From the IMG/VR virus record IMGVR_UViG_3300048926_000237, positions 1 to 7,390 of that record: 7,390 nt of DNA. One strand, written 5' to 3'. Source of the DNA: a virus. The notes under the pieces were generated by a model. That model was not told where the DNA came from. It was given only the letters and a program-made list of their open reading frames with translations, and made no database searches. The first letter of the stretch is position 1; every line of letters starts with the position of its first letter. The translations under genes were made by a program, and so were the position numbers. Positions 1 through 7,390 of the stretch are shown here, piece by piece.

Positions 1-51
1 ATGAACAAAAGCGGCTCCAAATCCAGCATGCGCTGGCTCGGCAAGTAAGAG
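1..51 (+). CDS. 3' fragment of the pVI-like gene (duplicate of 7264..7314 region; not a separate gene)
   Basis: Reads MNKSGSKSSMRWLGK-stop, identical to the C-terminus of the 7003..7311 CDS. It is part of the terminal overlap. Confidence 0.85.
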
Positions 52-127
52 GCTTACCCCATGCTGATCATTCGTACCGGCCTGCCAGGTGCAGGCAAGA
101 CCCTCAACGCCATTCGCGAAATCGACC
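1..127. repeat. Terminal redundancy, copy 1 (identical to 7264..7390)
   Basis: Base-by-base comparison of 1..127 with 7264..7390 shows no mismatch. Confidence 0.98.
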
Positions 128-1341
128 TCGAGCACGCTGCAGACCCGAACGACCCGACCAAGCGTCTGCACAAAGACCCGAACGACCCCGATCTGCCGCC
201 TCGGCCGATCTACTACAACGGTATCCCAGACCTGCTAGTCGATAAGCTGAAGGGCAACTGGATCGAGTGGCACACCCCCGAAAAGTGGTTCGAGCTTCCA
301 GACGGCGCCGTTATCGTCGTCGACGAAGCCCAGGGCACCTTCGGCACCGATATAGGCCGCGCCCGCGTTGAAAAGGTCACCCGTTTCGAGAAGCACCGGC
401 ACCACGGCTGGGACATTCACTTAATCACCCAGCACCCCAGCTTGCTGGCTCCAGCAGTGCGCAAGCTCGCCGGCAAACACATCAACTTTTTCAGGCCCTA
501 CGGGCGCTCCAAGGGCATCTTTCGGCACGAGTATGAAATGTGCATCGACAGCCCGGAAAAGCGCTCCAACTTCAAAATGTCGCAGGAAACCAAGGTCGAA
601 CTGGACCCGGCGTACTTCGGTATCTACAAGTCCAGCACCGTCCACACCCACAAGAAGGTGACGCCCCGATTCATCAAAATGTTGCCGCTCTACATCCTCG
701 GCGTCGTTGGCCCGCTGGCACTCCTCGCAGGTGGTTTCTGGTGGCTCATTAGCAGCAGTCAGGACGAGAACGATGCGATCAGGCAGGCGCAAGGGCAGGG
801 CAGTGACCTGCTCCCATCCGCTGCCACCGCAGAAGCCTCTGAGCAGCCCCGCACGACTGAGAAGTCGTCAACCGCCTCTAAGTCAGAGCAGTACCTAGAA
901 GACGCGACGCCGCTCGTTTCTGACCTGCCGCAGTCTGCGCCCAAGTATCACGAGCTGGCCAAGCCACGCGATTTCCCGCGGCCTGTCTGTGCTGCCAGCA
1001 ACGATGATCGTGTCATCGACAAGGCCATTCACCGAGGCCAGAAAATCGGCTTCTACCAGGGCAAGCGTGCTGCCTGTCAGTGCTACACGCAGCAGGTGAC
1101 CCGCATGGAGACCACCTTTGACTTCTGCATGGATGTGGTTACCAACGGGTACTTTGACGACACGCGTGCAGCTCCTGTCATCGCTAGCGGCAACCAGCGT
1201 GGGTTATCTGGCCATGCGTCACCCGACATAACGGCTGCTGCGAGAGACCGAGGGCGCGCAGCGTCCTCGCAGCAGCCGGTATCATCGGCATCCGGTGACA
1301 TTGTTGTCGTCGGCTCCGGCAAACCCGGCATTCTTTGGTGA
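61..1341 (+). CDS. zot: Zot-like / pI-like phage assembly (morphogenesis) P-loop NTPase
   Basis: N-terminal MLIIRTGLPGAGKT Walker A (79..102) and hhhhDEAQ Walker B-like VIVVDEAQ. One TM segment (LPLYILGVVGPLALLAGGFWWLI) lies about 205 aa in, followed by a periplasmic Cys-containing C-terminal domain. GAGG RBS at 49..52. Its position after the pVI-like gene matches inoviruses. Confidence 0.93.
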   Translation: MLIIRTGLPGAGKTLNAIREIDLEHAADPNDPTKRLHKDPNDPDLPPRPIYYNGIPDLLVDKLKGNWIEWHTPEKWFELPDGAVIVVDEAQGTFGTDIGRARVEKVTRFEKHRHHGWDIHLITQHPSLLAPAVRKLAGKHINFFRPYGRSKGIFRHEYEMCIDSPEKRSNFKMSQETKVELDPAYFGIYKSSTVHTHKKVTPRFIKMLPLYILGVVGPLALLAGGFWWLISSSQDENDAIRQAQGQGSDLLPSAATAEASEQPRTTEKSSTASKSEQYLEDATPLVSDLPQSAPKYHELAKPRDFPRPVCAASNDDRVIDKAIHRGQKIGFYQGKRAACQCYTQQVTRMETTFDFCMDVVTNGYFDDTRAAPVIASGNQRGLSGHASPDITAAARDRGRAASSQQPVSSASGDIVVVGSGKPGILW

Positions 1342-1350
1342 GGACTGACC

Positions 1351-1461
1351 ATGAAGCGACCCGTTTTCCGTGGCTATAGCGATCTCGATGCATTCATCGA
1401 CGGCTTGGCCTGGTGGACTGTGATGATTGCCGCCACTGTCGCCATGATCGTCTTCCTGTAG
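1351..1461 (+). CDS. 36-aa small membrane peptide (MKRPVFRGYSDLDAFIDGLAWWTVMIAATVAMIVFL), function unknown
   Basis: Not in the ORF track (too short). ATG at 1351 is preceded by GAGGA (1340..1344) at 6-nt spacing and lies 10 nt after the zot stop. Basic N-terminus plus one C-terminal TM helix. Confidence 0.45.
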   Translation: MKRPVFRGYSDLDAFIDGLAWWTVMIAATVAMIVFL

Positions 1462-1494
1462 GCTTCGCATAATGATCAGGGATTCATGGTTAAT
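1462..1494. other. dif-like sequence (candidate XerC-arm / attP)
   Basis: GCTTCGCATAATG (1462..1474) matches the XerC-arm side of gammaproteobacterial dif (recalled as GATTCGCATAATG... in Pseudomonas) at 12 of 13 positions. TCATGGTTAAT (1484..1494) loosely resembles the XerD arm TTATGTTAAAT (8/11) but sits 5 bp too far away. Confidence 0.3.
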
Positions 1495-1546
1495 GGCGTC
1501 CGGAAAATCGTCCCGATCCGGGCGTCATTGACCCATAATCCCCGTT

Positions 1547-1777
1547 ATGCGAACGCCCCTCGACATCCCCACGCACCTTGTGAAAGACGCCGCCCTTTAC
1601 GCGCCTTCTCGCGATCCTCTCGATGCTGTTTGCCACGTCCTGCAGGACTACCCTAGGTTGGTTTCCGAGGTGCGCGAGCTGCGCCGCCGTGTAACCGACT
1701 TGGACGGCGAGGGCGCCGAGCTGGACGACCTTCTTGCCAGGCTTCAGCACGTTGCCAGGCAGATTCTCGACCTCTGA
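1547..1777 (+). CDS. Small ribbon-helix-helix-like protein with helical/coiled-coil tail (76 aa)
   Basis: N-terminus MRTPLDIPTHLVKDAA follows the MRTxLDIdddLlxeA pattern of VapB/DUF2191-type RHH proteins. The C-terminal half is heptad-like (VSEVRELRRRVTDLD...LLARLQHVARQILDL). No SD is visible, and CATAAT (1534..1539) ends 7 nt before the ATG, so the mRNA may be leaderless. It is on the same strand as the other phage genes. Confidence 0.5.
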   Translation: MRTPLDIPTHLVKDAALYAPSRDPLDAVCHVLQDYPRLVSEVRELRRRVTDLDGEGAELDDLLARLQHVARQILDL

Positions 1778-1779
1778 TT

Positions 1780-1966
1780 TGTTAGCACGCGGATCTCCTG
1801 CAGGATCTGACCAGGTTGAATTCTGTTAGCACCCCGCCTGTGGAGCTGTTAGCAGAATTCGCCCCGGGAAGTCCTCGAGCTGGAATCTTCTGTTAGCATT
1901 CCTATCGATAGAAGTGCTAACATAATGCTCCGCGGCGCCAACCAGGTGATCGCTTTTTTGTTAGCA
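1780..1966. repeat. Array of six TGTTAGCA octamers (five direct, one inverted): candidate iterons/operators
   Basis: Exact TGTTAGCA at 1780, 1824, 1847, 1891 and 1959, and its reverse complement TGCTAACA at 1915. Start-to-start spacings are 44, 23, 44, 24, 44 bp. Confidence 0.85.
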
Positions 1967-1975
1967 GGGGAAGCT

Positions 1976-2239
1976 ATGCCAACCATCATGATTCGCCACG
2001 CAACAGACGATCAGCTTCGCGAGGCCATGCGCCTGACTGGTCACACCACTGCGTCCAAGGCCCTCGTTGACTGCGTGGCCATCGCCAGCAAGAAGACTGA
2101 CGAATCCTCTCGCTTGCGTCAGGAGGTCTACGTGCTCAAGCAAGAACTGGCCTTTTCCCAGCAGGTTATTCGCCGTGCCAAGGACTCTGCAGCCGCGCTT
2201 CTCGATCACGTTGCCCAGGGCGACTTGCTCAACGGATAG
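1976..2239 (+). CDS. VapB/DUF2191-like ribbon-helix-helix DNA-binding protein with long helical tail (87 aa)
   Basis: TIMIRHATDDQLREAMRLTGHTTASKALVDCV matches the beta-strand/DDxLxxEAMxLTG/helix signature of VapB-type RHH antitoxins. The tail SSRLRQEVYVLKQELAFSQQVIRRAK is coiled-coil-like. ATG 1976 follows AGGGGAAG. The track start at 1925 would place an octamer repeat and a -10-like box inside the gene. Confidence 0.7.
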   Translation: MPTIMIRHATDDQLREAMRLTGHTTASKALVDCVAIASKKTDESSRLRQEVYVLKQELAFSQQVIRRAKDSAAALLDHVAQGDLLNG

Positions 2240-2354
2240 TGCCCAGCTCTCAAGCTGACCACTCCACGCTGATCACTCGCTTTTGCTCGTGTTGGCACGC
2301 TCTTTCATCCCGCGAGGCGATCCACTCGCACATTTGCGATGGGCCGGAACGGGC

Positions 2355-2376
2355 CAGGGGCGAAGCCCTGCTTTTT
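2355..2376 (+). terminator. Short GC-rich hairpin followed by T5 (candidate terminator for the 1976..2239 gene)
   Basis: CAGGG (2355..2359) pairs with CCCTG (2366..2370), followed by CTTTTT (2371..2376). Confidence 0.4.
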
Positions 2377-2400
2377 GAGCGCTCGACGGCGCCCGGAGGG

Positions 2401-2427
2401 GTGGGGGTGCTGTTACACCCCCACTTT
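2401..2427 (+). terminator. Perfect 9-bp GC-rich hairpin plus TTT (terminator and/or ssDNA structural signal)
   Basis: GTGGGGGTG (2401..2409), loop CTGTTA, CACCCCCAC (2416..2424), then TTT. Confidence 0.5.
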
Positions 2428-2428
2428 G

Positions 2429-2448
2429 GTATGGACTTCCATACTTTT
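2429..2448 (+). terminator. 7-bp palindromic hairpin plus TTTT
   Basis: GTATGGA (2429..2435), CT, TCCATAC (2438..2444), then TTTT (2445..2448). It lies immediately 3' of the convergent repressor gene. Confidence 0.4.
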
Positions 2449-2453
2449 GCTGC

Positions 2454-2834
2454 TCAACCCTGCTTCAGCAGCTCCCTGTTCTGGTGCTGCATGATCAGAG
2501 CTCTGATTACCTCTTTCGTGGTCTCTCTTTCCTGGCCCTTAAGCTTTCTAAGCTGTTGAAATAAAAGGCTTAAATCTCCATCCGGGCCTAGCTCTTCCTC
2601 GTCGAACAGCAGCTGGTCTGCTGTACACCCCAGCGCTATCACTACTGCCTTGACCTTCGACACGCCTGTGTCGCCTATACCGGCTTCCATTCTTTGGATC
2701 GCTTTCAGGTTGAGGCTTGCCAGCACTGCAAGCTGGCCCTGTGACAGGCCGGCCGCCTCTCTGAGCTTTCGCATGTTCTCGCCGAGGGTCATTTCTGTCG
2801 TGCTCTTGGGACGTTCATAGGCCAATTTGACCAT
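2454..2834 (-). CDS. XRE / Cro-C1 family helix-turn-helix transcriptional repressor (126 aa), likely the phage immunity repressor
   Basis: LGENMRKLREAAGLSQGQLAVLASLNLKAIQRMEAG is a typical HTH_XRE motif. It is the only minus-strand gene and is divergent from rep. Start chosen at ATG 2834 (MVKLAYERP) because AAGGAG lies 8 nt upstream on the minus strand. The track start at 2864 would contain that RBS. Confidence 0.9.
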   Translation of the reverse strand: MVKLAYERPKSTTEMTLGENMRKLREAAGLSQGQLAVLASLNLKAIQRMEAGIGDTGVSKVKAVVIALGCTADQLLFDEEELGPDGDLSLLFQQLRKLKGQERETTKEVIRALIMQHQNRELLKQG

Positions 2835-2873
2835 GTTTTTCACTCCTTCTGTCTCAACCGCCAATCACCTTGG

Positions 2874-2927
2874 GACAAATATGTCTTGACCGGGACAAAT
2901 TCGTCCTTATGATGCGACGCATATGTC
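2874..2927. promoter_or_regulatory. Three pseudo-palindromic 12-bp operator-like sites in the repressor/rep divergent region
   Basis: GACAAATATGTC (2874..2885), GACAAATTCGTC (2894..2905) and GACGCATATGTC (2916..2927). Half sites are GACA/TGTC-like and starts are spaced 20 and 22 bp apart. The first two are embedded in the direct repeat GGGACAAAT. Confidence 0.5.
2886..2913 (+). promoter_or_regulatory. Sigma70-type promoter for rep
   Basis: TTGACC (2886..2891), 16-bp spacer, TATGAT (2908..2913), about 40 nt upstream of the rep ATG. Operator-like site 2 fills the spacer and site 3 covers the predicted start point. Confidence 0.55.
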
Positions 2928-2953
2928 TCATCATCTGACCACGGATGTCCTGA

Positions 2954-4084
2954 ATGTTCATTGATTGGCTCACTGTCTCGCAGGAACACCCGTTCGACCT
3001 TCCGGTCGTCTGCGACGTGTTCACGCTGACCATCGACGCCAATACCGATGAGGTGCTCAGCACCCGGCAGCCACGCTTCAAGCATGAGGCCAGTCATTCG
3101 ACCTCGATCACCATCCATGTCCAGGGGCGCAAAGTTCGCGTCGAGGGCAACCCAAGCAGAGTAGGGCGCCTTGATAACCTCTTCGGGTTTACCACCATCG
3201 AACAATGCATTGCCGTCTACAACGCGATCCTGCGCGAATACGGCCTTCCGGGTTTCACCCGTTGCACTGGCTCTGACCTGCGCCAGGGTCAGTCGGGCGG
3301 CTCGGCTGGCGATTGGATCGGTGACGGCGCCAAGATCGAACGTATCGATCTGACAACCAATGTCACGGTTGGCGAGGGCAACGTCCTTGCCTACCTGCGC
3401 GGCGTTTCCAGCCAGCGCCTGGGCCATTCCATCGGCTTCCTCTACCCCAACGGTCGTACCGTCAGCTGGACCCCCAAGGGCAACGGCAAAGGCGGTCGCC
3501 TGCAGTATCGCAAGGCCTACGACAAGACCTTCGAACTCGACGCCAACCTGCTGCCACGCATGAAGCGCCTGTATGGCGATGAATCCCCCGAATTTCAGTA
3601 CGCCCAGCGCGTACGCGACTACTGCGCCCAGCACGGCGTTGTTCGCATGGAACAAGAGCTGAAAAACGAATACCTCCAGCGGCACCACCTTGCGTGGTGG
3701 GGGCTATTCGACGAACGCCGCTTCGGTGAATTGCACGGTGAATTTCTGAGAGTAGATGAGCGATTACAGGTGACTGCGATGGACATGATGACGATAGCTG
3801 AGAAGCTCCTAGAGACCGGTGTTGTAGCCAGTCGACAGGCTGCAAATTCCACGGCATCCGCCGCGATTCTCTGGATGCACGGCCACCAGTTCGACTTCTC
3901 CAAGTCGCAAGCCAAGGTCAACGCCGCCCGCTTGAATCAGATCGGCATCAACATCCGCAACGCCTGCGATACCAGCCGCTTTGCGCCTGTGTTCGTTCGC
4001 CAGTGCCGCGAAATCACCAAGTCCAACGTCCTGGCCATCCCGAGCTGGTACCAGCGCGCGAACCACCTGCAGGTGGCTGCATGA
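2954..4084 (+). CDS. Rolling-circle replication initiation protein, gII/Phage_CRI-like
   Basis: Several blocks line up by eye with Ff gene II protein. These are MFIDWLTV (Ff MIDMLVL), GNPSRVGRLDNLFGFTT (Ff ASPAKVLQGHNVFGTTD), IERIDLTTN (Ff ISRIDATFS) and VRMEQELKNEYL (Ff VRFEARIKTRYL). It sits upstream of the ssDNA-binding gene as in Ff. Confidence 0.93.
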   Translation: MFIDWLTVSQEHPFDLPVVCDVFTLTIDANTDEVLSTRQPRFKHEASHSTSITIHVQGRKVRVEGNPSRVGRLDNLFGFTTIEQCIAVYNAILREYGLPGFTRCTGSDLRQGQSGGSAGDWIGDGAKIERIDLTTNVTVGEGNVLAYLRGVSSQRLGHSIGFLYPNGRTVSWTPKGNGKGGRLQYRKAYDKTFELDANLLPRMKRLYGDESPEFQYAQRVRDYCAQHGVVRMEQELKNEYLQRHHLAWWGLFDERRFGELHGEFLRVDERLQVTAMDMMTIAEKLLETGVVASRQAANSTASAAILWMHGHQFDFSKSQAKVNAARLNQIGINIRNACDTSRFAPVFVRQCREITKSNVLAIPSWYQRANHLQVAA

Positions 4085-4167
4085 TCGCCGCCACCCTCGA
4101 CATCGCCATCGTCTGCATGGCCGGCGCCGTTGCCATCGTCTGGCTCGGCGATTGGGTGCGCGCATGA
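4081..4167 (+). CDS. 28-aa hydrophobic peptide (MIAATLDIAIVCMAGAVAIVWLGDWVRA), function unknown
   Basis: Not in the ORF track. Its ATG overlaps the rep stop (ATGA at 4081..4084), and its own stop overlaps the next ATG (ATGA at 4164..4167). Single TM-like helix. Confidence 0.4.
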   Translation: MIAATLDIAIVCMAGAVAIVWLGDWVRA

Positions 4168-4355
4168 AGCCTTCTCTTACGCGTGACCGCCTTAAAGGAA
4201 CCCGCCACGTCCTGCACGTTATTTGCCTTGATGGTCGCCCCATTCTGCCCACCTATCTTGGCTGGTTCGAAGCGCCCCTTGTTGTCGTCGATAACGAGAC
4301 CCTGTGCCTCTACACCCCAGTTCGTTGGGTTCGTCTGCGAGGGCTTACCCATTGA
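4164..4355 (+). CDS. Hypothetical protein, 63 aa (MKPSLTRDRLKGTRHVLHVICLDGRPILPTYLGWFEAPLVVVDNETLCLYTPVRWVRLRGLTH)
   Basis: In-frame ATG inside track ORF 3981..4355, coupled by ATGA to the preceding peptide. Same strand as the operon. No recognisable motif. Confidence 0.5.
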   Translation: MKPSLTRDRLKGTRHVLHVICLDGRPILPTYLGWFEAPLVVVDNETLCLYTPVRWVRLRGLTH

Positions 4356-4627
4356 AAACAGTGAGCTTCCAGGGAACCCAACTGACTGCTGGCCAACGCC
4401 GCCAGCTGGAACAACGCCAACAGGCCAAGCCCGCATTTTTGGCGCCGCACCTCCAGCAGATGCTGGACGACAGCGCCCGCGAAATTGCCCGCATGAAAGA
4501 GCAGGGCGCCCAGGGTGAAAACCCGAACAAGTTCAAGCTCGAATATCAGACCAAGGGCACGCCCTGGCTCGGTGACGTGTTTGGATTTGCAACTTACGAA
4601 ACCGAGGAAAGTAACCATGCCATTTAA
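4352..4627 (+). CDS. Hypothetical Gln/Glu-rich protein (about 88-91 aa; start uncertain)
   Basis: Track ORF 4304..4627 starts at a GTG inside the previous gene. A TTG at 4352 overlaps the previous stop (TTGA). Other in-frame candidates are GTG 4361 and ATG 4460. The 3' end overlaps the gV-like start by 11 nt. Confidence 0.5.
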   Translation: MKTVSFQGTQLTAGQRRQLEQRQQAKPAFLAPHLQQMLDDSAREIARMKEQGAQGENPNKFKLEYQTKGTPWLGDVFGFATYETEESNHAI

Positions 4628-4907
4628 CGTACGCATCAAAATCACTTCGACTGATGTTGAGGAAAAGTCCGGCACAAATGCCCGCGGCCCGTGGAAGATC
4701 GTCGAGCAGGAAGCGTATATGTTCAAGTCCGGTGACGAGTTCCCGGAAAAGATTGTTCTCGCCCTGGATAACAACTCCCCGGCCTATGAGCCCGGCATGT
4801 ATGAACTCGACGAAAAATCCATCTACGTCGGCAAGTTCAAGCAGCCACAACTGCGTATGCGTCTCCGCCCACTAGCCGCCGTCGCCCAACAGCAAAAGGT
4901 CAGCTAA
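4617..4907 (+). CDS. gV-like ssDNA-binding protein (96 aa)
   Basis: ATG 4617 is preceded by GAGGAAAG. The size, position before the coat gene and sequence pattern (MPFNVRIKITSTDVEEKSGTNARGPWKIVEQEAYMF...FPEKIVLALD...PGMYELD) resemble the Pf3 ssDNA-binding protein as recalled (MNIQITFTDSVRQGTSAKGNPYTFQEGFLHL...). Confidence 0.8.
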   Translation: MPFNVRIKITSTDVEEKSGTNARGPWKIVEQEAYMFKSGDEFPEKIVLALDNNSPAYEPGMYELDEKSIYVGKFKQPQLRMRLRPLAAVAQQQKVS

Positions 4908-4935
4908 GCCAGAATTTTGCGTAGCAAAAACTGGC
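4908..4935 (+). other. Interrupted hairpin between the gV-like gene and the next RBS
   Basis: GCCAG (4908..4912) pairs with CTGGC (4931..4935), and TTTTGC (4915..4920) pairs with GCAAAA (4924..4929), with loop GTA. No T-run follows, and the GAGG RBS begins at 4937. Confidence 0.45.
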
Positions 4936-4948
4936 TGAGGAACGCGCA

Positions 4949-5161
4949 ATGAATTTCTTAGGCTGTGACGGTGTTTGGTTGCTCAACGCAGATGGCACCA
5001 CTGTTTGCCAAGGCAACATGAAGACTTTCACAGTTCAGGAAATGCGGGACCACTTGACCCCCGCTATGTCGCTCACTCAGAAAGCAGAACTTACGGGCGC
5101 ATTGGTTACGCTCTTTGTTCTGGTCTTTGTGGGCAAGAAACTTCGCACCATCACTCAATAA
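4949..5161 (+). CDS. Small membrane protein in the pVII/pIX position (70 aa; C-terminal TM LTGALVTLFVLVFVG then KKLR)
   Basis: GAGGA (4937..4941) lies 7 nt before the ATG. It sits between the ssDNA-binding and major coat genes, where Ff encodes its minor cap proteins. Shorter internal starts (MKTF..., MSLT...) cannot be excluded. Confidence 0.55.
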   Translation: MNFLGCDGVWLLNADGTTVCQGNMKTFTVQEMRDHLTPAMSLTQKAELTGALVTLFVLVFVGKKLRTITQ

Positions 5162-5172
5162 AGGATGCACTT

Positions 5173-5412
5173 ATGAAACGCACTCAACTGAAACTCAACG
5201 CCATGTGCAAAAAGTTCGGCCCGGCTGCCGCGACCATCGCCCTGGCCACCCTGGCTTCGCCTGTGTTCGCTGCTGAAGGCGACATCGACATCAGCAAGGG
5301 CCTGCTGTACATCGGTGGCGGTCTTGTTGCCGCTGGTGCCCTGGTTGCCGCAATGATCGGTCTCGTGACCCTGATCGGCGCCGGCAAGAAAGCTCAACGC
5401 GCCGGGACCTAA
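5173..5412 (+). CDS. gVIII-like major coat protein precursor (79 aa; predicted 33-aa signal peptide plus 46-aa mature protein)
   Basis: AAGGA RBS at 5161..5165. Signal peptide ends PVFA, followed by mature AEGDIDISKG (acidic), GLLYIGGGLVAAGALVAAMIGLVTLIGAG (hydrophobic) and KKAQRAGT (basic). The mature AEGD N-terminus matches Ff pVIII (AEGDD...). Followed by a strong terminator. Confidence 0.88.
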   Translation: MKRTQLKLNAMCKKFGPAAATIALATLASPVFAAEGDIDISKGLLYIGGGLVAAGALVAAMIGLVTLIGAGKKAQRAGT

Positions 5413-5436
5413 TACCACGCTGTAACTGCTGCACCA

Positions 5437-5468
5437 AGCCCGCTCGTATAACACGGGCGGGCTTTTTT
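5437..5468 (+). terminator. Rho-independent terminator after the major coat gene
   Basis: AGCCCGCTCGT (5437..5447) pairs with ACGGGCGGGCT (5453..5463), with one G-T pair and a 5-nt loop. The hairpin runs into TTTTTT (5463..5468). Confidence 0.85.
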
Positions 5469-5488
5469 ATTGCCCGGAGATTGTTTAA

Positions 5489-7003
5489 ATGGGGAACTTA
5501 CTATGTACCTTAACCCGGAAGATGTGGTCTTTCTCGGCGTGCTGTTTGCTCTTGGGCTTCTTTGCACAGGGCGCTAGTGCTGATGCCTATTATTGGAAGT
5601 TCCGAGATAACGCACCGCACCCCAGCCCACGCGCTGCCTGTAAAGTCGAAGCGGATAAACTTATTAGCGATGGCGGCAAATTCATAGCTGGTACTATTAA
5701 ATCTGTCACCCTCCTTGCTGATGACTATGCTGAGTGTATTGTTACCGCTCCCCGTGAATATGGTGGCGGCGATTTCAAATATACAATTATTCGCGGCGGA
5801 ACTTACTGTGAACCCCCATCCGTTTATAACTCCCAAACTGGCTCATGTGACACACCCGTAAGCAAGTGCGAGGAAAAGACCGGCAAAGAAACCGGTTTTC
5901 AGACTTCCGCTAAAGACTTGCTCTGGGAAGCCTGTATATCCGGATGCGCAGTTGCCGTTACCGGAATCCCCACTGTCAGCCAGCCGAAAACCTTTGGCCC
6001 AATGTTCGCTTACCACACTGGCATTTTTACCGGCGAGGAGTGCCCCCAGGACACGCCAGGTGCTGACACCGAACCACCCCCGCCAGCACCTACAGAAGAC
6101 GAAGAAGAGCAGGACTGCGGCCCAACAGAGCGCGTTGAGGACGCAGAGGGCAGGATTCACCTCATCAACAAGTGCACCACTACCACCACCAATCGCGACA
6201 ACCAGGGCTGTGCTGCCAGGGGCGGCTCGATTGGCACCATCAAGGGCGTCCAAGCCTGCATTGAGCAGCAGAAAGGCCCCAAAACGACAGAAACCAAGAA
6301 GGAAGAAACCAAGACCGAGACCAAGAATCCGGACGGCAGCAAGAAGAACGAAAACACCACAACCACCACCAAAACCGAGTGCAAGGGCGGTGTCTGCACC
6401 ACGACCACTACCACCACTAACAACAGCACCAAAACCAACGCTGACGGCTCTCCTGGCGGTTCATCGTCCAACTGCAAGGGTGATAAGTGCCCAGGTACTG
6501 GCACTGGCGGCAACGGTGGTGGCGGTGGTGGATCGTCCGGCAACGGCGACCAGGGCGACGAAGAAACCCCCAAATCAAGCGTAGGCGGGGAGGCGTGTGA
6601 TGCTGCAGTCACCTGCACCGGTGATGCCGTCCAGTGCGCCATTCTCCGTCAGCAGAAAACCGCCCAGTGCGATGCCGCCAAGTTTCGCGAGGTCACCCCG
6701 AAGAAAGAGGCTGAACTCAAGACCAGCATCGAGACTGAGTTTTCCGGCGAGAAGTATTCGCCCATCAAGGCCGACGCTGACAGCACTTTCACCCTTGACG
6801 GAATGATCGACACCAGCAGCCGCTTTTCCAAGGTTTGCCCGGCCATCCCCGAATTCTCGTTCCCGTCCATCGACGGTCAGTCCATCAGCGTTTCCATGAC
6901 CTGGGTCGCCGACTGGTGCCAGTACCTGGTCTGGATCGGCTACCTGATTGTCGCCTTTGGCATGCGCCGCGCTGCCGAAATCATCGCAGGAGGTATGAAC
7001 TAA
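5489..7003 (+). CDS. gIII-like adsorption / minor coat protein (504 aa)
   Basis: GGAGA RBS at 5476..5480. Signal peptide ends ...LLLGFFAQGASA before DAYYW. Cys-containing N-terminal domains are separated by Pro-rich (EPPPPAPTEDEEE), Thr/Lys-rich and Gly-rich (GGNGGGGGGSSGNG) linkers. The C-terminal block CTGDAVQCAILRQQ...C is followed by the membrane anchor YLVWIGYLIVAFGM, resembling TspB-type/pIII C-terminal domains. An alternative start is ATG 5522. Confidence 0.85.
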   Translation: MGNLLCTLTRKMWSFSACCLLLGFFAQGASADAYYWKFRDNAPHPSPRAACKVEADKLISDGGKFIAGTIKSVTLLADDYAECIVTAPREYGGGDFKYTIIRGGTYCEPPSVYNSQTGSCDTPVSKCEEKTGKETGFQTSAKDLLWEACISGCAVAVTGIPTVSQPKTFGPMFAYHTGIFTGEECPQDTPGADTEPPPPAPTEDEEEQDCGPTERVEDAEGRIHLINKCTTTTTNRDNQGCAARGGSIGTIKGVQACIEQQKGPKTTETKKEETKTETKNPDGSKKNENTTTTTKTECKGGVCTTTTTTTNNSTKTNADGSPGGSSSNCKGDKCPGTGTGGNGGGGGGSSGNGDQGDEETPKSSVGGEACDAAVTCTGDAVQCAILRQQKTAQCDAAKFREVTPKKEAELKTSIETEFSGEKYSPIKADADSTFTLDGMIDTSSRFSKVCPAIPEFSFPSIDGQSISVSMTWVADWCQYLVWIGYLIVAFGMRRAAEIIAGGMN

Positions 7004-7311
7004 TGCCCGCAATCATCGGCTTGTTTCTCCGCGCTCTTGCCTGGGCGCTCCCTGGTCTCGGCTGGAGCCTGCTCAAGGGCCTCGGCTTCGGTGCAGTCAC
7101 CTTTACCGGCGTATCCCTCGCCATGGATCAGGCCAAGGGCTACGTCTTCTCCAGCCTCGGCGCGTTGCCCACTGCCTGGCTCCAGTTGCTCGGCGTCCTG
7201 CAGATCGACGTGTATTTCAACATCCTGTTTTCCGCCTACGTTGCCCGCGCTGTGCTGTGGGGCATGAACAAAAGCGGCTCCAAATCCAGCATGCGCTGGC
7301 TCGGCAAGTAA
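7003..7311 (+). CDS. pVI-like minor coat / DUF2523-like membrane protein (102 aa)
   Basis: The ATG overlaps the pIII-like stop (TAATG, 7001..7005). The protein is multi-TM and hydrophobic (MPAIIGLFLRALAWALPGLGW...). It lies between the adsorption protein and zot, as in Pf-type phages. The track ORF start at 6835 lies inside the previous gene. Confidence 0.85.
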   Translation: MPAIIGLFLRALAWALPGLGWSLLKGLGFGAVTFTGVSLAMDQAKGYVFSSLGALPTAWLQLLGVLQIDVYFNILFSAYVARAVLWGMNKSGSKSSMRWLGK

Positions 7312-7390
7312 GAGGCTTACCCCATGCTGATCATTCGTACCGGCCTGCCAGGTGCAGGCAAGACCCTCAACGCCATTCGCGAAATCGACC
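7264..7390. repeat. Terminal redundancy, copy 2 (identical to 1..127)
   Basis: Same comparison. It contains the 3' end of the pVI-like gene, a GAGG RBS and the first 67 nt of the zot-like gene. Confidence 0.98.
7324..7390 (+). CDS. zot: 5' fragment of the zot-like gene (duplicate of 61..127; window overrun)
   Basis: Identical to 61..127 and part of the terminal overlap. Confidence 0.9.
   Translation, partial: MLIIRTGLPGAGKTLNAIREID

Follow-up and report, generated by a model that had tools for sequence, protein, structure and literature searches.

Two small, probably paralogous genes of an integrase-less Pseudomonas inovirus: a putative binder of co-varying octamer boxes and a gene beginning inside a predicted CTXphi-type attP

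Described systems and the locus under study

Mnt of phage P22, which belongs to the Arc/MetJ superfamily, is a protein of about 80 aa in which an N-terminal ribbon-helix-helix (RHH) unit is followed by a C-terminal coiled coil joining dimers, and it recognizes a symmetric operator. Omega from pSM19035, ParG from TP228, ParR from R1, and CopG are short autoregulating RHH proteins that act on repeats at their own promoters. The terminal peptide of ParR and ParG hands the complex to a partner, and the specificity of plasmid RHH proteins diversifies between elements. MetJ reads an 8-bp palindromic metbox as an RHH dimer; the metboxes are tandem and contiguous, several are bound cooperatively, and a corepressor is needed. 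Here, two small genes designated as ORF-A and ORF-B, which are comparable in part with these systems, were analyzed in the viral record IMGVR_UViG_3300048926_000237 of IMG/VR. The whole stretch of 7390 bases (positions 1 to 7390 of the record) is referred to as the window, and it corresponds to a circle of 7263 bp with a terminal overlap (position 1 = 7264).

An omega-like RHH protein, ORF13, was proposed for episome maintenance in the Pseudomonas inovirus PMBT54 (PMC10534721). The attP(+) of CTXphi contains two inverted dif-like sites, which reveal the XerCD substrate only in single-stranded DNA (ssDNA) (PMC3089051). In the explanation that is considered likely here, the source of the window is an integrase-less Pseudomonas inovirus of 7.26 kb with XerCD-dependent integration at dif, and ORF-A and ORF-B belong to distantly paralogous families with an RHH-like unit, the second helix of which runs into a coiled coil of 50–60 residues. 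ORF-B would bind an array of octamer boxes upstream of its gene, and ORF-A would be the paralog without boxes, its start codon lying inside the second XerC arm of attP. The features are listed in Table 1.

ORF-B resembles Mnt in being small and in combining an RHH-like N-terminus with a coiled coil, and "MNT repressor" is named in a weak Foldseek list. It differs from Mnt in showing no detectable sequence match or significant structural match, in its second helix, which is predicted by the model to run straight into the coiled coil, in its putative targets (8-bp boxes in 44-bp pairs, against one operator of about 17 bp for Mnt), and in an extra conserved C-terminal peptide, Q-x-D-L-L. ORF-B is functionally similar to omega, ParG, ParR, and CopG, with a repeat array around its own putative promoter. 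However, the repeats of these plasmid systems are contiguous units of 7–11 bp, while the ORF-B pairs are 44-bp-phased; the plasmid proteins are accompanied by a ParA or ParM partner gene, while none lies beside ORF-B in the phage; and a long coiled coil is missing from them. A sequence relationship between them and ORF-B was not found. The boxes of ORF-B are 8 bp long and several per array, like the metboxes, but they are not contiguous, and MetJ has neither a coiled coil nor sequence similarity to ORF-B.

Table 1. Positions of the genes and sequence features in the window.
Feature	Position	Strand	Remarks
Zot/pI	61–1341		
Predicted fold-back attP, CTXphi type	1461–1556	+	two inverted dif-like sites pairing in the + strand
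XerC-binding arm 1, TTCGCATAA	1464–1472	+	identical to positions 3–11 of P. aeruginosa dif
CATAAT hexamer	1534–1539	+	part of the XerD-like arm at attP site 2 (ATTATG on the opposite strand); direct reading
XerC-binding arm 2, TTATGCGAA on the + strand	1545–1553	−	includes the ORF-A start codon
ORF-A	1547–1777	+	76 aa; RHH-like N-terminus (residues 1–35), coiled coil (24–75)
Six exact TGTTAGCA boxes	1780–1966		at 1780, 1824, 1847, 1891, 1915 (inverted), and 1959
Box 5 + T (TGCTAACAT)	1915–1923	+	extended −10 likeness (TGnTATAAT); from sequence only
Shine-Dalgarno sequence of ORF-B, GGGGAAG	1967–1973	+	direct reading; directly after box 6
ORF-B	1976–2239	+	87 aa; putative box-binding protein
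ORF-B layout			residues 3–8, putative specificity strand; 11–21, helix 1; T21-G22-x-T24-T25, turn; 26–85, heptad helix
Codons for Q81-G-D-L-L85	2216–2230	+	
Terminator-like stem-loop with T-run	2355–2370	+	end of the rightward ORF-A/ORF-B transcription unit
XRE repressor	2454–2864	leftward	
Three 16-bp direct repeats (TGGGACAAATATGTCT and variants)	2871–2928		spacing 20 and 22 bp
Rep, G2P-type	2954–4084		
G5P	4617–4907		
Major coat protein	5173–5412		
pIII-like protein	5489–7003		
pVI (DUF2523)	7003–7311		

ORF-B and its octamer array

ORF-A and ORF-B are both genuine conserved coding genes, as a preliminary description made from the letters of the window had taken them to be. ORF-B matches phrog_8031 in PHROGs (E 1e-13), and its close homologues have 83–88 aa and the N-terminus MPTIMIRH. 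This conserved N-terminus and the Shine-Dalgarno sequence place its start at 1976 and not at 1925. ORF-A matches phrog_13909 (E 1e-33), and its 66 homologues are almost all exactly 76 aa in length. Variability at the three codon positions is 0.83/0.49/1.36 across 63 distinct homologous genes of ORF-A; the third position is the most variable, which is a coding pattern. The minus-strand ORF at 1490–1750, which had been named as the possible product in place of 1547–1777, is rejected as the true gene, with stops breaking that frame in 27 of the 63 homologues. No functional name is given to ORF-A or ORF-B by Pfam, PHROGs, PADLOC, or NCBIfam. The record of Pf 17897 already labels its ORF-B homologue "DNA-binding protein".

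The six boxes form three pairs; the boxes of a pair are 44 bp apart, and the pairs are separated by 23–24 bp. The genome contains exactly 6 copies of TGTTAGCA, all of them inside the array, against 0.16 expected. As no further exact box is present elsewhere in the genome, the target of ORF-B would be the array itself, and ORF-B appears not to control the Rep or XRE promoters. Among 100 related viral loci, ORF-B follows ORF-A in 20 and is present without ORF-A in 17 others. Every locus with a repeated octamer array also has ORF-B; where ORF-A is missing, the array is likewise upstream of ORF-B. It lies directly 3' of ORF-A in 17 of the 20 two-gene loci. The three exceptions are L004, with mostly one-mismatch boxes, and L027 and L031, in which an insertion shifts ORF-B and the boxes downstream. 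An iteron array or repeated motif was sought 3' of ORF-A in the approximately 60 loci with ORF-A only, and none was found. The two proteins, the array, and the convergent XRE repressor had been proposed to act together as a regulatory switch. A regulatory DNA-binding role connected with the octamer array is very likely for ORF-B, but the array is neither ORF-A's nor the XRE repressor's; it belongs to ORF-B alone. The repressor has three probable 16-bp operators of its own, and the ORF-A-only loci have no array.

The insertions that separate ORF-A from ORF-B in two of these loci are 1.4–1.7 kb in length (L031 4550–6225 and L027 5222–6954). The insertion of L031 contains two cargo ORFs, one of which encodes 133 aa with a CopG-like C-terminal end, and a transposase of an insertion sequence is present upstream of ORF-A in this locus.

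Co-variation is observed between the sequence of the boxes and the N-terminal strand of the accompanying ORF-B. The class MPTIMIRH, that of the window and L086 (~40% identical overall), is associated with TGTTAGCA. The class (M)LLTIRDV is associated with TGCTAGCA, KTLTLRDV with TGATAGCA, and MHLIVRDF with TGATATCA, and the two groupings MLIK./MLVKLPD share one box, TGGTACCA. Six N-terminal strand groupings map to five box sequences and one mixed plasmid set (TGGTAGCA, TGCTATCA, and TGATAGCA). Between classes, the boxes (TGnTAnCA) vary at positions 3 and 6 and nowhere else; these positions are symmetric, as expected for a reading head with twofold symmetry. The pair geometry recurs in relatives with five different box sequences; the paired boxes are nearly always 44 bp apart, and 43, 54, or 55 bp apart in a few units. 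The gaps between pairs are mostly 22–25 or 34 bp, and larger in L031, L037, and L086. In all relatives, the last box ends 8–25 nt 5' of the ORF-B ATG.

The box predicted from the strand was confirmed in two cases. P0178 (MHLIVRDF), from a chromosomal prophage remnant, has four TGATATCA boxes at −133, −89, −65, and −21. P0175 (MLLTIRDV), from a P4-like satellite of P. aeruginosa encoding an integrase, a Toprim/DUF927 primase, Ogr/Delta, and a P2-type capsid, is accompanied by flanking TGCTAGCA boxes 44 bp apart. P0228 (MLIQIRQI), from a plasmid, has TG[GAC]TA[GT]CA boxes in pairs of 43–44 bp with 57- and 24-bp gaps between pairs; its strand class was not predicted beforehand, and it adds a sixth pairing and is no test of the code. 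The co-variation is strong indirect evidence for binding of ORF-B to the boxes through its N-terminal strand. The pairing of strand residues with the bases at box positions 3 and 6 amounts to a simple recognition table, which is testable by mutagenesis and is a potential source of orthogonal DNA-binding parts. The occurrences in filamentous phages, a P4-like satellite, and a plasmid show what appears to be a portable two-part module of boxes and binder, moving between these kinds of elements. An assignment of the boxes as Rep iterons was rejected, because the boxes accompany ORF-B into elements with unrelated replication genes.

Two of the genomic contexts can be located more precisely. The satellite homologue of ORF-B, at L101 6936–7384 on a P. 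aeruginosa chromosome, adjoins the Toprim/DUF927 primase gene. The plasmid homologue, at L106 5770–6311 on a 57-kb Pseudomonas plasmid, is followed ~1.4 kb downstream by the gene of a ParA-like ATPase.

The 36-bp spacers within the pairs (1788–1958) contain a second conserved, roughly symmetric element, TTT..CCTGG....CCAGG..AAA. It has CTCGAG, CTGCAG, and GCCGGC variants, and relatives from every box class share it. With its two boxes, a spacer makes up a 52-bp unit that is imperfectly palindromic (box-TTT-CCTGG...CCAGG-AAA-box). Where the box itself is not a palindrome, the two copies of a pair often have opposite orientations, and the array occupies the intergenic zone where Ff phages keep minus-strand origin and packaging signals. 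The array could be a cis-acting ssDNA element of this sort (minus-strand origin or packaging hairpins), for which ORF-B would be an accessory binder, but this is quite improbable. The segment 1775–1975 folds no better than shuffles (z −1.6, 14/200), against z −5.8 for attP. About 60 related phages have no array, hence it is no essential origin or packaging signal, and the module is also present in double-stranded DNA elements, the P4-like satellite and the plasmid.

In the preferred explanation, the N-terminal strand of ORF-B reads the 8-bp near-palindromic boxes, as the co-variation supports, and coiled-coil-linked dimers on the box pairs would form a higher-order complex. The complex would assemble on one face of the DNA, as 44 bp is about four helical turns. 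Occupation of the boxes would repress the ORF-B gene itself, since boxes 4–6 overlap its likely promoter and ribosome-binding site, which box 6 abuts. TGCTAACAT may be the promoter element, in which case the −35 region would contain box 4 (TTAGCA).

ORF-A and/or ORF-B could alternatively be the Cro-like or antirepressor arm of a lysogeny switch, opposing the XRE repressor and controlling Rep. The genes adjoin the region of immunity and replication and are convergent with the XRE gene, proteins of this kind, small and DNA-binding, are usual switch components at such positions, and the specificity classes resemble heteroimmunity. This role is nevertheless unlikely. No TGTTAGCA is present near the XRE and Rep promoters, which have their own three 16-bp probable operators; most phages with the same XRE/Rep layout have no ORF-B; and the ORF-B module is also present in the P4-like satellite and the plasmid, whose regulators are unrelated.

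Orthogonal specificities are typical of functions that avoid cross-talk between co-resident elements, such as partition sites, replication-control iterons, and immunity. Since at least five mutually orthogonal box/strand specificities are found, the ORF-B module would have an element-specific cis function, which may be episome maintenance or partition, or control of copy number or expression. Such a maintenance, copy, or expression-control role is favored over a lysis–lysogeny switch for ORF-B.

The most conserved motif of the ORF-B family is C-terminal. The profile search found 146 relatives or clusters, and 113 of the 120 listed members have Q-x-D-[LM]-[LFI]. For the ORF-B of the window, pLDDT drops over the last residues. 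The peptide, mostly Q-x-D-[LM]-[LF], is presumably a handle for a conserved partner. In the beta-clamp-binding motif, Q is at position 1, an aliphatic residue at position 2, any residue (Asp preferred) at position 3, L or M at position 4, and F or L at position 5, in a flexible region (PMC11139829). The ORF-B peptide fits four of these five positions, and the G or K at position 2 weakens the match; Gly at this position weakens binding, and Lys is outside the coverage of that review (PMC11139829). If its partner is the sliding clamp, or a different hub of the host, the module would be a new link of small episomes to host replication or segregation. That ORF-B is a DNA-anchored adaptor, with its RHH tip on its own array, and hence a minimal single-protein maintenance device in three kinds of mobile elements, is given a low probability.

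The ORF-B family, which has no curated model, its strand-to-box code, the fixed 44-bp pair geometry, and the conserved C-terminal peptide are new. New as well are the spread of the module over three kinds of mobile elements and the fusion of a probable paralog to a predicted CTXphi-type attP in Pseudomonas phages.

Fold and relationship of the two proteins

In the AlphaFold2 monomer models, residues 1–8 of ORF-A are extended, followed by a helix at 9–18 and a long helix from 24 (pLDDT 87). In ORF-B, residues 1–10 are extended, followed by a helix at 11–21 and a long helix from 26 (pLDDT 90). In both proteins, a short loop of 4–5 residues joins the helix of ~10 residues to one long helix. This is the strand-helix-turn-helix order of RHH proteins within ~40–45 residues, with an extended segment at the strand. 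The G-x-S/T/N turn that precedes helix 2 in RHH proteins is observed in the ORF-B family and in ORF-A. Nearly all members of the ORF-B family have T-G-x-x-T/S-(A/G)-S at the turn, and the loop of ORF-A is P-S-R-D in close members and A-x-L-L-T-G-R, similar to ORF-B, in distant members. In RHH proteins, strand residues specify a short (pseudo)palindromic site, and the strand–box co-variation indirectly suggests the same for ORF-B. An RHH-like fold is likely for ORF-B and plausible for ORF-A. The RHH-like N-terminal pattern noted earlier in both proteins agrees with this topology and turn, and so do the coiled-coil tails. Conserved hydrophobic residues in the long helix recur every 3.5 residues in both families (3/2000 and 0/2000 shuffles), which indicates that the tails are real.

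The assignment of both proteins to the VapB/DUF2191 family is not supported. PF09957 (VapB_antitoxin) aligns to 17 residues of ORF-B (11–27) with an e-value of 0.058 and 13.7 bits, against a cut-off of 23.4 bits. It is found at E < 1 in only 2 of 13 ORF-B family members, and has no match to ORF-A. None of the 120 listed ORF-B relatives has a precomputed Pfam domain. Sequence-profile searches of PDB with the full-length families revealed only coiled coils. With a profile of the ORF-B N-terminus only, the best match in PDB was the 44-aa antitoxin 7e4j, which is non-significant (E 0.77) and aligned over the strand and helix 1. Foldseek found nothing below E 1 in PDB and BFVD. The profile searches thus gave no significant RHH or VapB match, but the weak signals are coherent: the turn motif is present, the weak Foldseek list of ORF-B is dominated by RHH proteins (MazE-mt1, TCP domain, NikR, ParD, and AtaR), and the sub-threshold VapB and antitoxin matches align exactly to the strand and helix 1 of ORF-B. 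A weak NCBIfam match, to a DNA-binding protein of plasmid replication (16.6 bits, with 85 required), and the matches to DUF5813 and DASH_Dad3 were judged to be coiled-coil noise.

ORF-B shares with VapB a small size and an RHH-type N-terminus with strand and helix 1 ending in L-T-G (DDQLREAMRLTG in ORF-B). Given this local resemblance and the antitoxin 7e4j as the best match, the two proteins could be orphan VapB-type antitoxins, either decoys against host VapC-like toxins or remnants of a lost toxin–antitoxin pair. This is very improbable. Apart from the low Pfam score, the conserved C-terminal half of ORF-B is a coiled coil ending in the Q-x-D-L-L peptide, whereas VapB has a toxin-binding tail that wraps the toxin. 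ORF-B also has its own multi-box array, and co-varying DNA boxes are needless for a decoy; the diversified specificity argues instead for an element-specific cis function, and the decoy proposal finds no support. No ORF of the window matches a toxin or defence family, which bears out the earlier reading that the circle has no toxin. Likewise, no PIN or other toxin gene was seen among the genes called in the three contexts outside inoviruses (satellite, plasmid, and chromosome), while in the ~100 related viral loci ORFs were compared only with the window proteins, so that toxin genes were not looked for there.

The families of ORF-A and ORF-B are aligned by hhalign with a probability of 95.1% and an e-value of 3.3e-8. 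The alignment has 71 columns and stays in register over its whole length, beginning at the strand and reaching the coiled-coil end, so that the N-terminal units match as well. Direct BLASTP between ORF-A and ORF-B found nothing, and the relationship is visible only between profiles. The two families are probably distant paralogs, and the duplication that had been raised as a possibility is a reasonable explanation.

ORF-A, the attP hairpin, and the phage genome

A hairpin of ~95 nt spans the start of ORF-A and the sequence before it. Its ssDNA fold has a dG of −29.5 kcal/mol (z −5.8), and none of 200 shuffles is equally stable. At its base, XerC arm 1 pairs with XerC arm 2. In 31 relatives, 95.7% of the cells of a 31-pair stem are paired, against 32–41% when the partners are slid. 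Compensatory changes are observed at 16 pairs, and 0 of 500 shuffles reach the observed score. The many G.T wobbles in the stem indicate folding in the + strand. The dif of PAO1 is GATTCGCATAATGTATATTATGTTAAAT (PMC2731167), and the prophage record of Pf 17897 has TTCGCATAATGT repeats at both bounds.

The position of ORF-A relative to the hairpin was scanned in 68 ORF-A places. XerC arm 1 is located 78–83 nt 5' of the ORF-A ATG in 55, and 88–108 nt 5' of the start in 11 further places with a different start placement. In 44 places, TTATGCGnn with up to one mismatch begins at position −2 and so overlaps the ATG, and in 4 it is 10–28 nt 5' of the assigned start. In the remaining 20, most of which start ATGCGCTGC, the final two bases bring the mismatches above the limit of one. 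The second XerC arm imposes, and thereby explains, the conserved "MR" at the ORF-A N-terminus.

The CATAAT hexamer does end 7 nt before the ATG, as noted earlier, but it is better explained as a XerD-like attP arm than as the −10 box of a leaderless transcript. The equivalent hexamers of relatives are mostly ACATAG or TGTAAC, which are poor as −10 boxes; a leaderless ORF-A transcript has no support from conservation, and is conceivable for this phage. A strict promoter scan called no promoter for ORF-A or ORF-B. In any read-through transcript, the ATG of ORF-A would be buried in the stem.

In a prophage remnant of P. cavernae, an attP1-like junction is found at 8920 and ORF-A at 9001, while dif, at 10640, is perfect. 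In remnants from P. cavernae and another Pseudomonas, one end has the junction and ORF-A, and the opposite end has a complete dif. This polarity is the one predicted by the CTXphi-type mechanism, in which integration restores an entire dif at only one of the two prophage ends. These observations imply a Pseudomonas phage attP of the CTXphi type, with predicted integration at dif by XerCD. Like CTXphi attP(+), it has opposed dif-like sites ~70–90 nt apart, the pairing of which in the + strand gives a XerC arm, a mismatched centre, and a XerD arm (PMC3089051), and no phage integrase is present. It differs in its Pseudomonas host and in a hairpin of ~95 nt against ~150 nt. In addition, a protein-coding gene, ORF-A, begins inside the second XerC arm here. 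A predicted CTXphi-type single-strand attachment site with an embedded gene start is thereby identified in Pseudomonas phages.

ORF-A is directly 3' of gene I in every ORF-A locus among the 100 related viral loci. An exhaustive HMMER profile search found 42 representatives at 50% identity, which is a small family, and none is in an informative new context. The representatives are 32–99 aa in length, except four long coiled-coil proteins (819–2447 aa) taken for noise. The N-terminal 40 residues are nearly invariant in closer relatives (at least 60% identity), although the phages are otherwise different, and they vary in the members most remote from ORF-A. The near invariance among closer relatives suggests, if weakly, that what ORF-A probably recognizes is conserved as well, either a target at or close to attP/dif or the Xer machinery.

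One form of this would be a Xer accessory factor that binds attP/dif or XerC/XerD and promotes or directs integration, for which XafT of TLCphi is a precedent (PMC6744903 and PMC9226527). The start inside XerC arm 2, the presence of arm 1 upstream in 66 of the 68 places, and the conserved N-terminus would fit such a role, and ORF-A is the first gene inside attL of the prophage remnants beside dif. The role is nonetheless doubtful: ORF-A has no similarity to XafT/DUF3653, CTXphi-type integration was reported to need only XerC catalysis (PMC3089051), and Pf 17897-like phages have lost ORF-A and retain the hairpin, so ORF-A is not needed for attP as such.

In two of these Pf 17897-like phages (L002 108–125 and L098 4797–4815), the hairpin is intact and only the first few codons of ORF-A are present (ATGCGATGCCGC). 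The box array begins immediately 3' of the residual codons, which indicates a precise deletion of ORF-A.

Several points weigh against the explanation preferred here. No significant match to any RHH family was found in Pfam, NCBIfam, PDB profiles, or Foldseek against PDB and BFVD, and the RHH assignment draws on topology, a short motif, and DNA co-variation. The models are of monomers, in which the dimeric beta-sheet that defines the RHH fold is not seen. The hhalign score of the two families may be too high, as both have the composition of coiled coils. The strict scan called no canonical sigma-70 promoter in the array, so that autoregulation of ORF-B is deduced from position. The palindromic element of the spacers is unexplained by the box-binding model. 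For ORF-A, no DNA target was found, and its absence from the hairpin-retaining Pf 17897-like phages counts on the same side.

The gene set of the window is standard for an integrase-less inovirus. Among named phages, Phage silverpheasant213 and Pseudomonas phage 17897 are the nearest relatives, the latter of which falls within the groups of 7-kb integrase-less prophages in PMC10675462. Such Pf-like prophages, described recently, are widespread in Pseudomonas, including clinical P. aeruginosa (PMC10675462). Their small genes are annotated as hypothetical, and two PHROG families without a function gain a testable role here.

The three 16-bp repeats face the XRE gene and overlap the Rep promoter TTGACC-16-TATGAT (2886–2913), which is the sole strong promoter match of the window. 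They are probably operators of the divergent XRE repressor. Between ORF-B and the XRE gene, a stem-loop, GGGGGTGCTGTTACACCCCC, is found at 2403–2422. An exact copy is present in 30 related loci, always on the + strand, and nearly all of them have a window-type Rep gene within the stretch fetched. It is the sole stretch with ~94% identity to Pf 17897, and is a candidate for a rolling-circle origin hairpin or a bidirectional terminator.

An ORF of 36 aa at 1351–1461, directly 3' of Zot, has no Pfam or PHROG match. The C-terminal half of its product is hydrophobic (MKRPVFRGYSDLDAFIDGLAWWTVMIAATVAMIVFL), and it may be a small membrane protein. Several IMG/VR contigs (L015/L016, L041, L098/L100, and L008) carry the phage as two tandem copies, which is of note since irreversible CTXphi-type integration requires tandem copies to yield new genomes.

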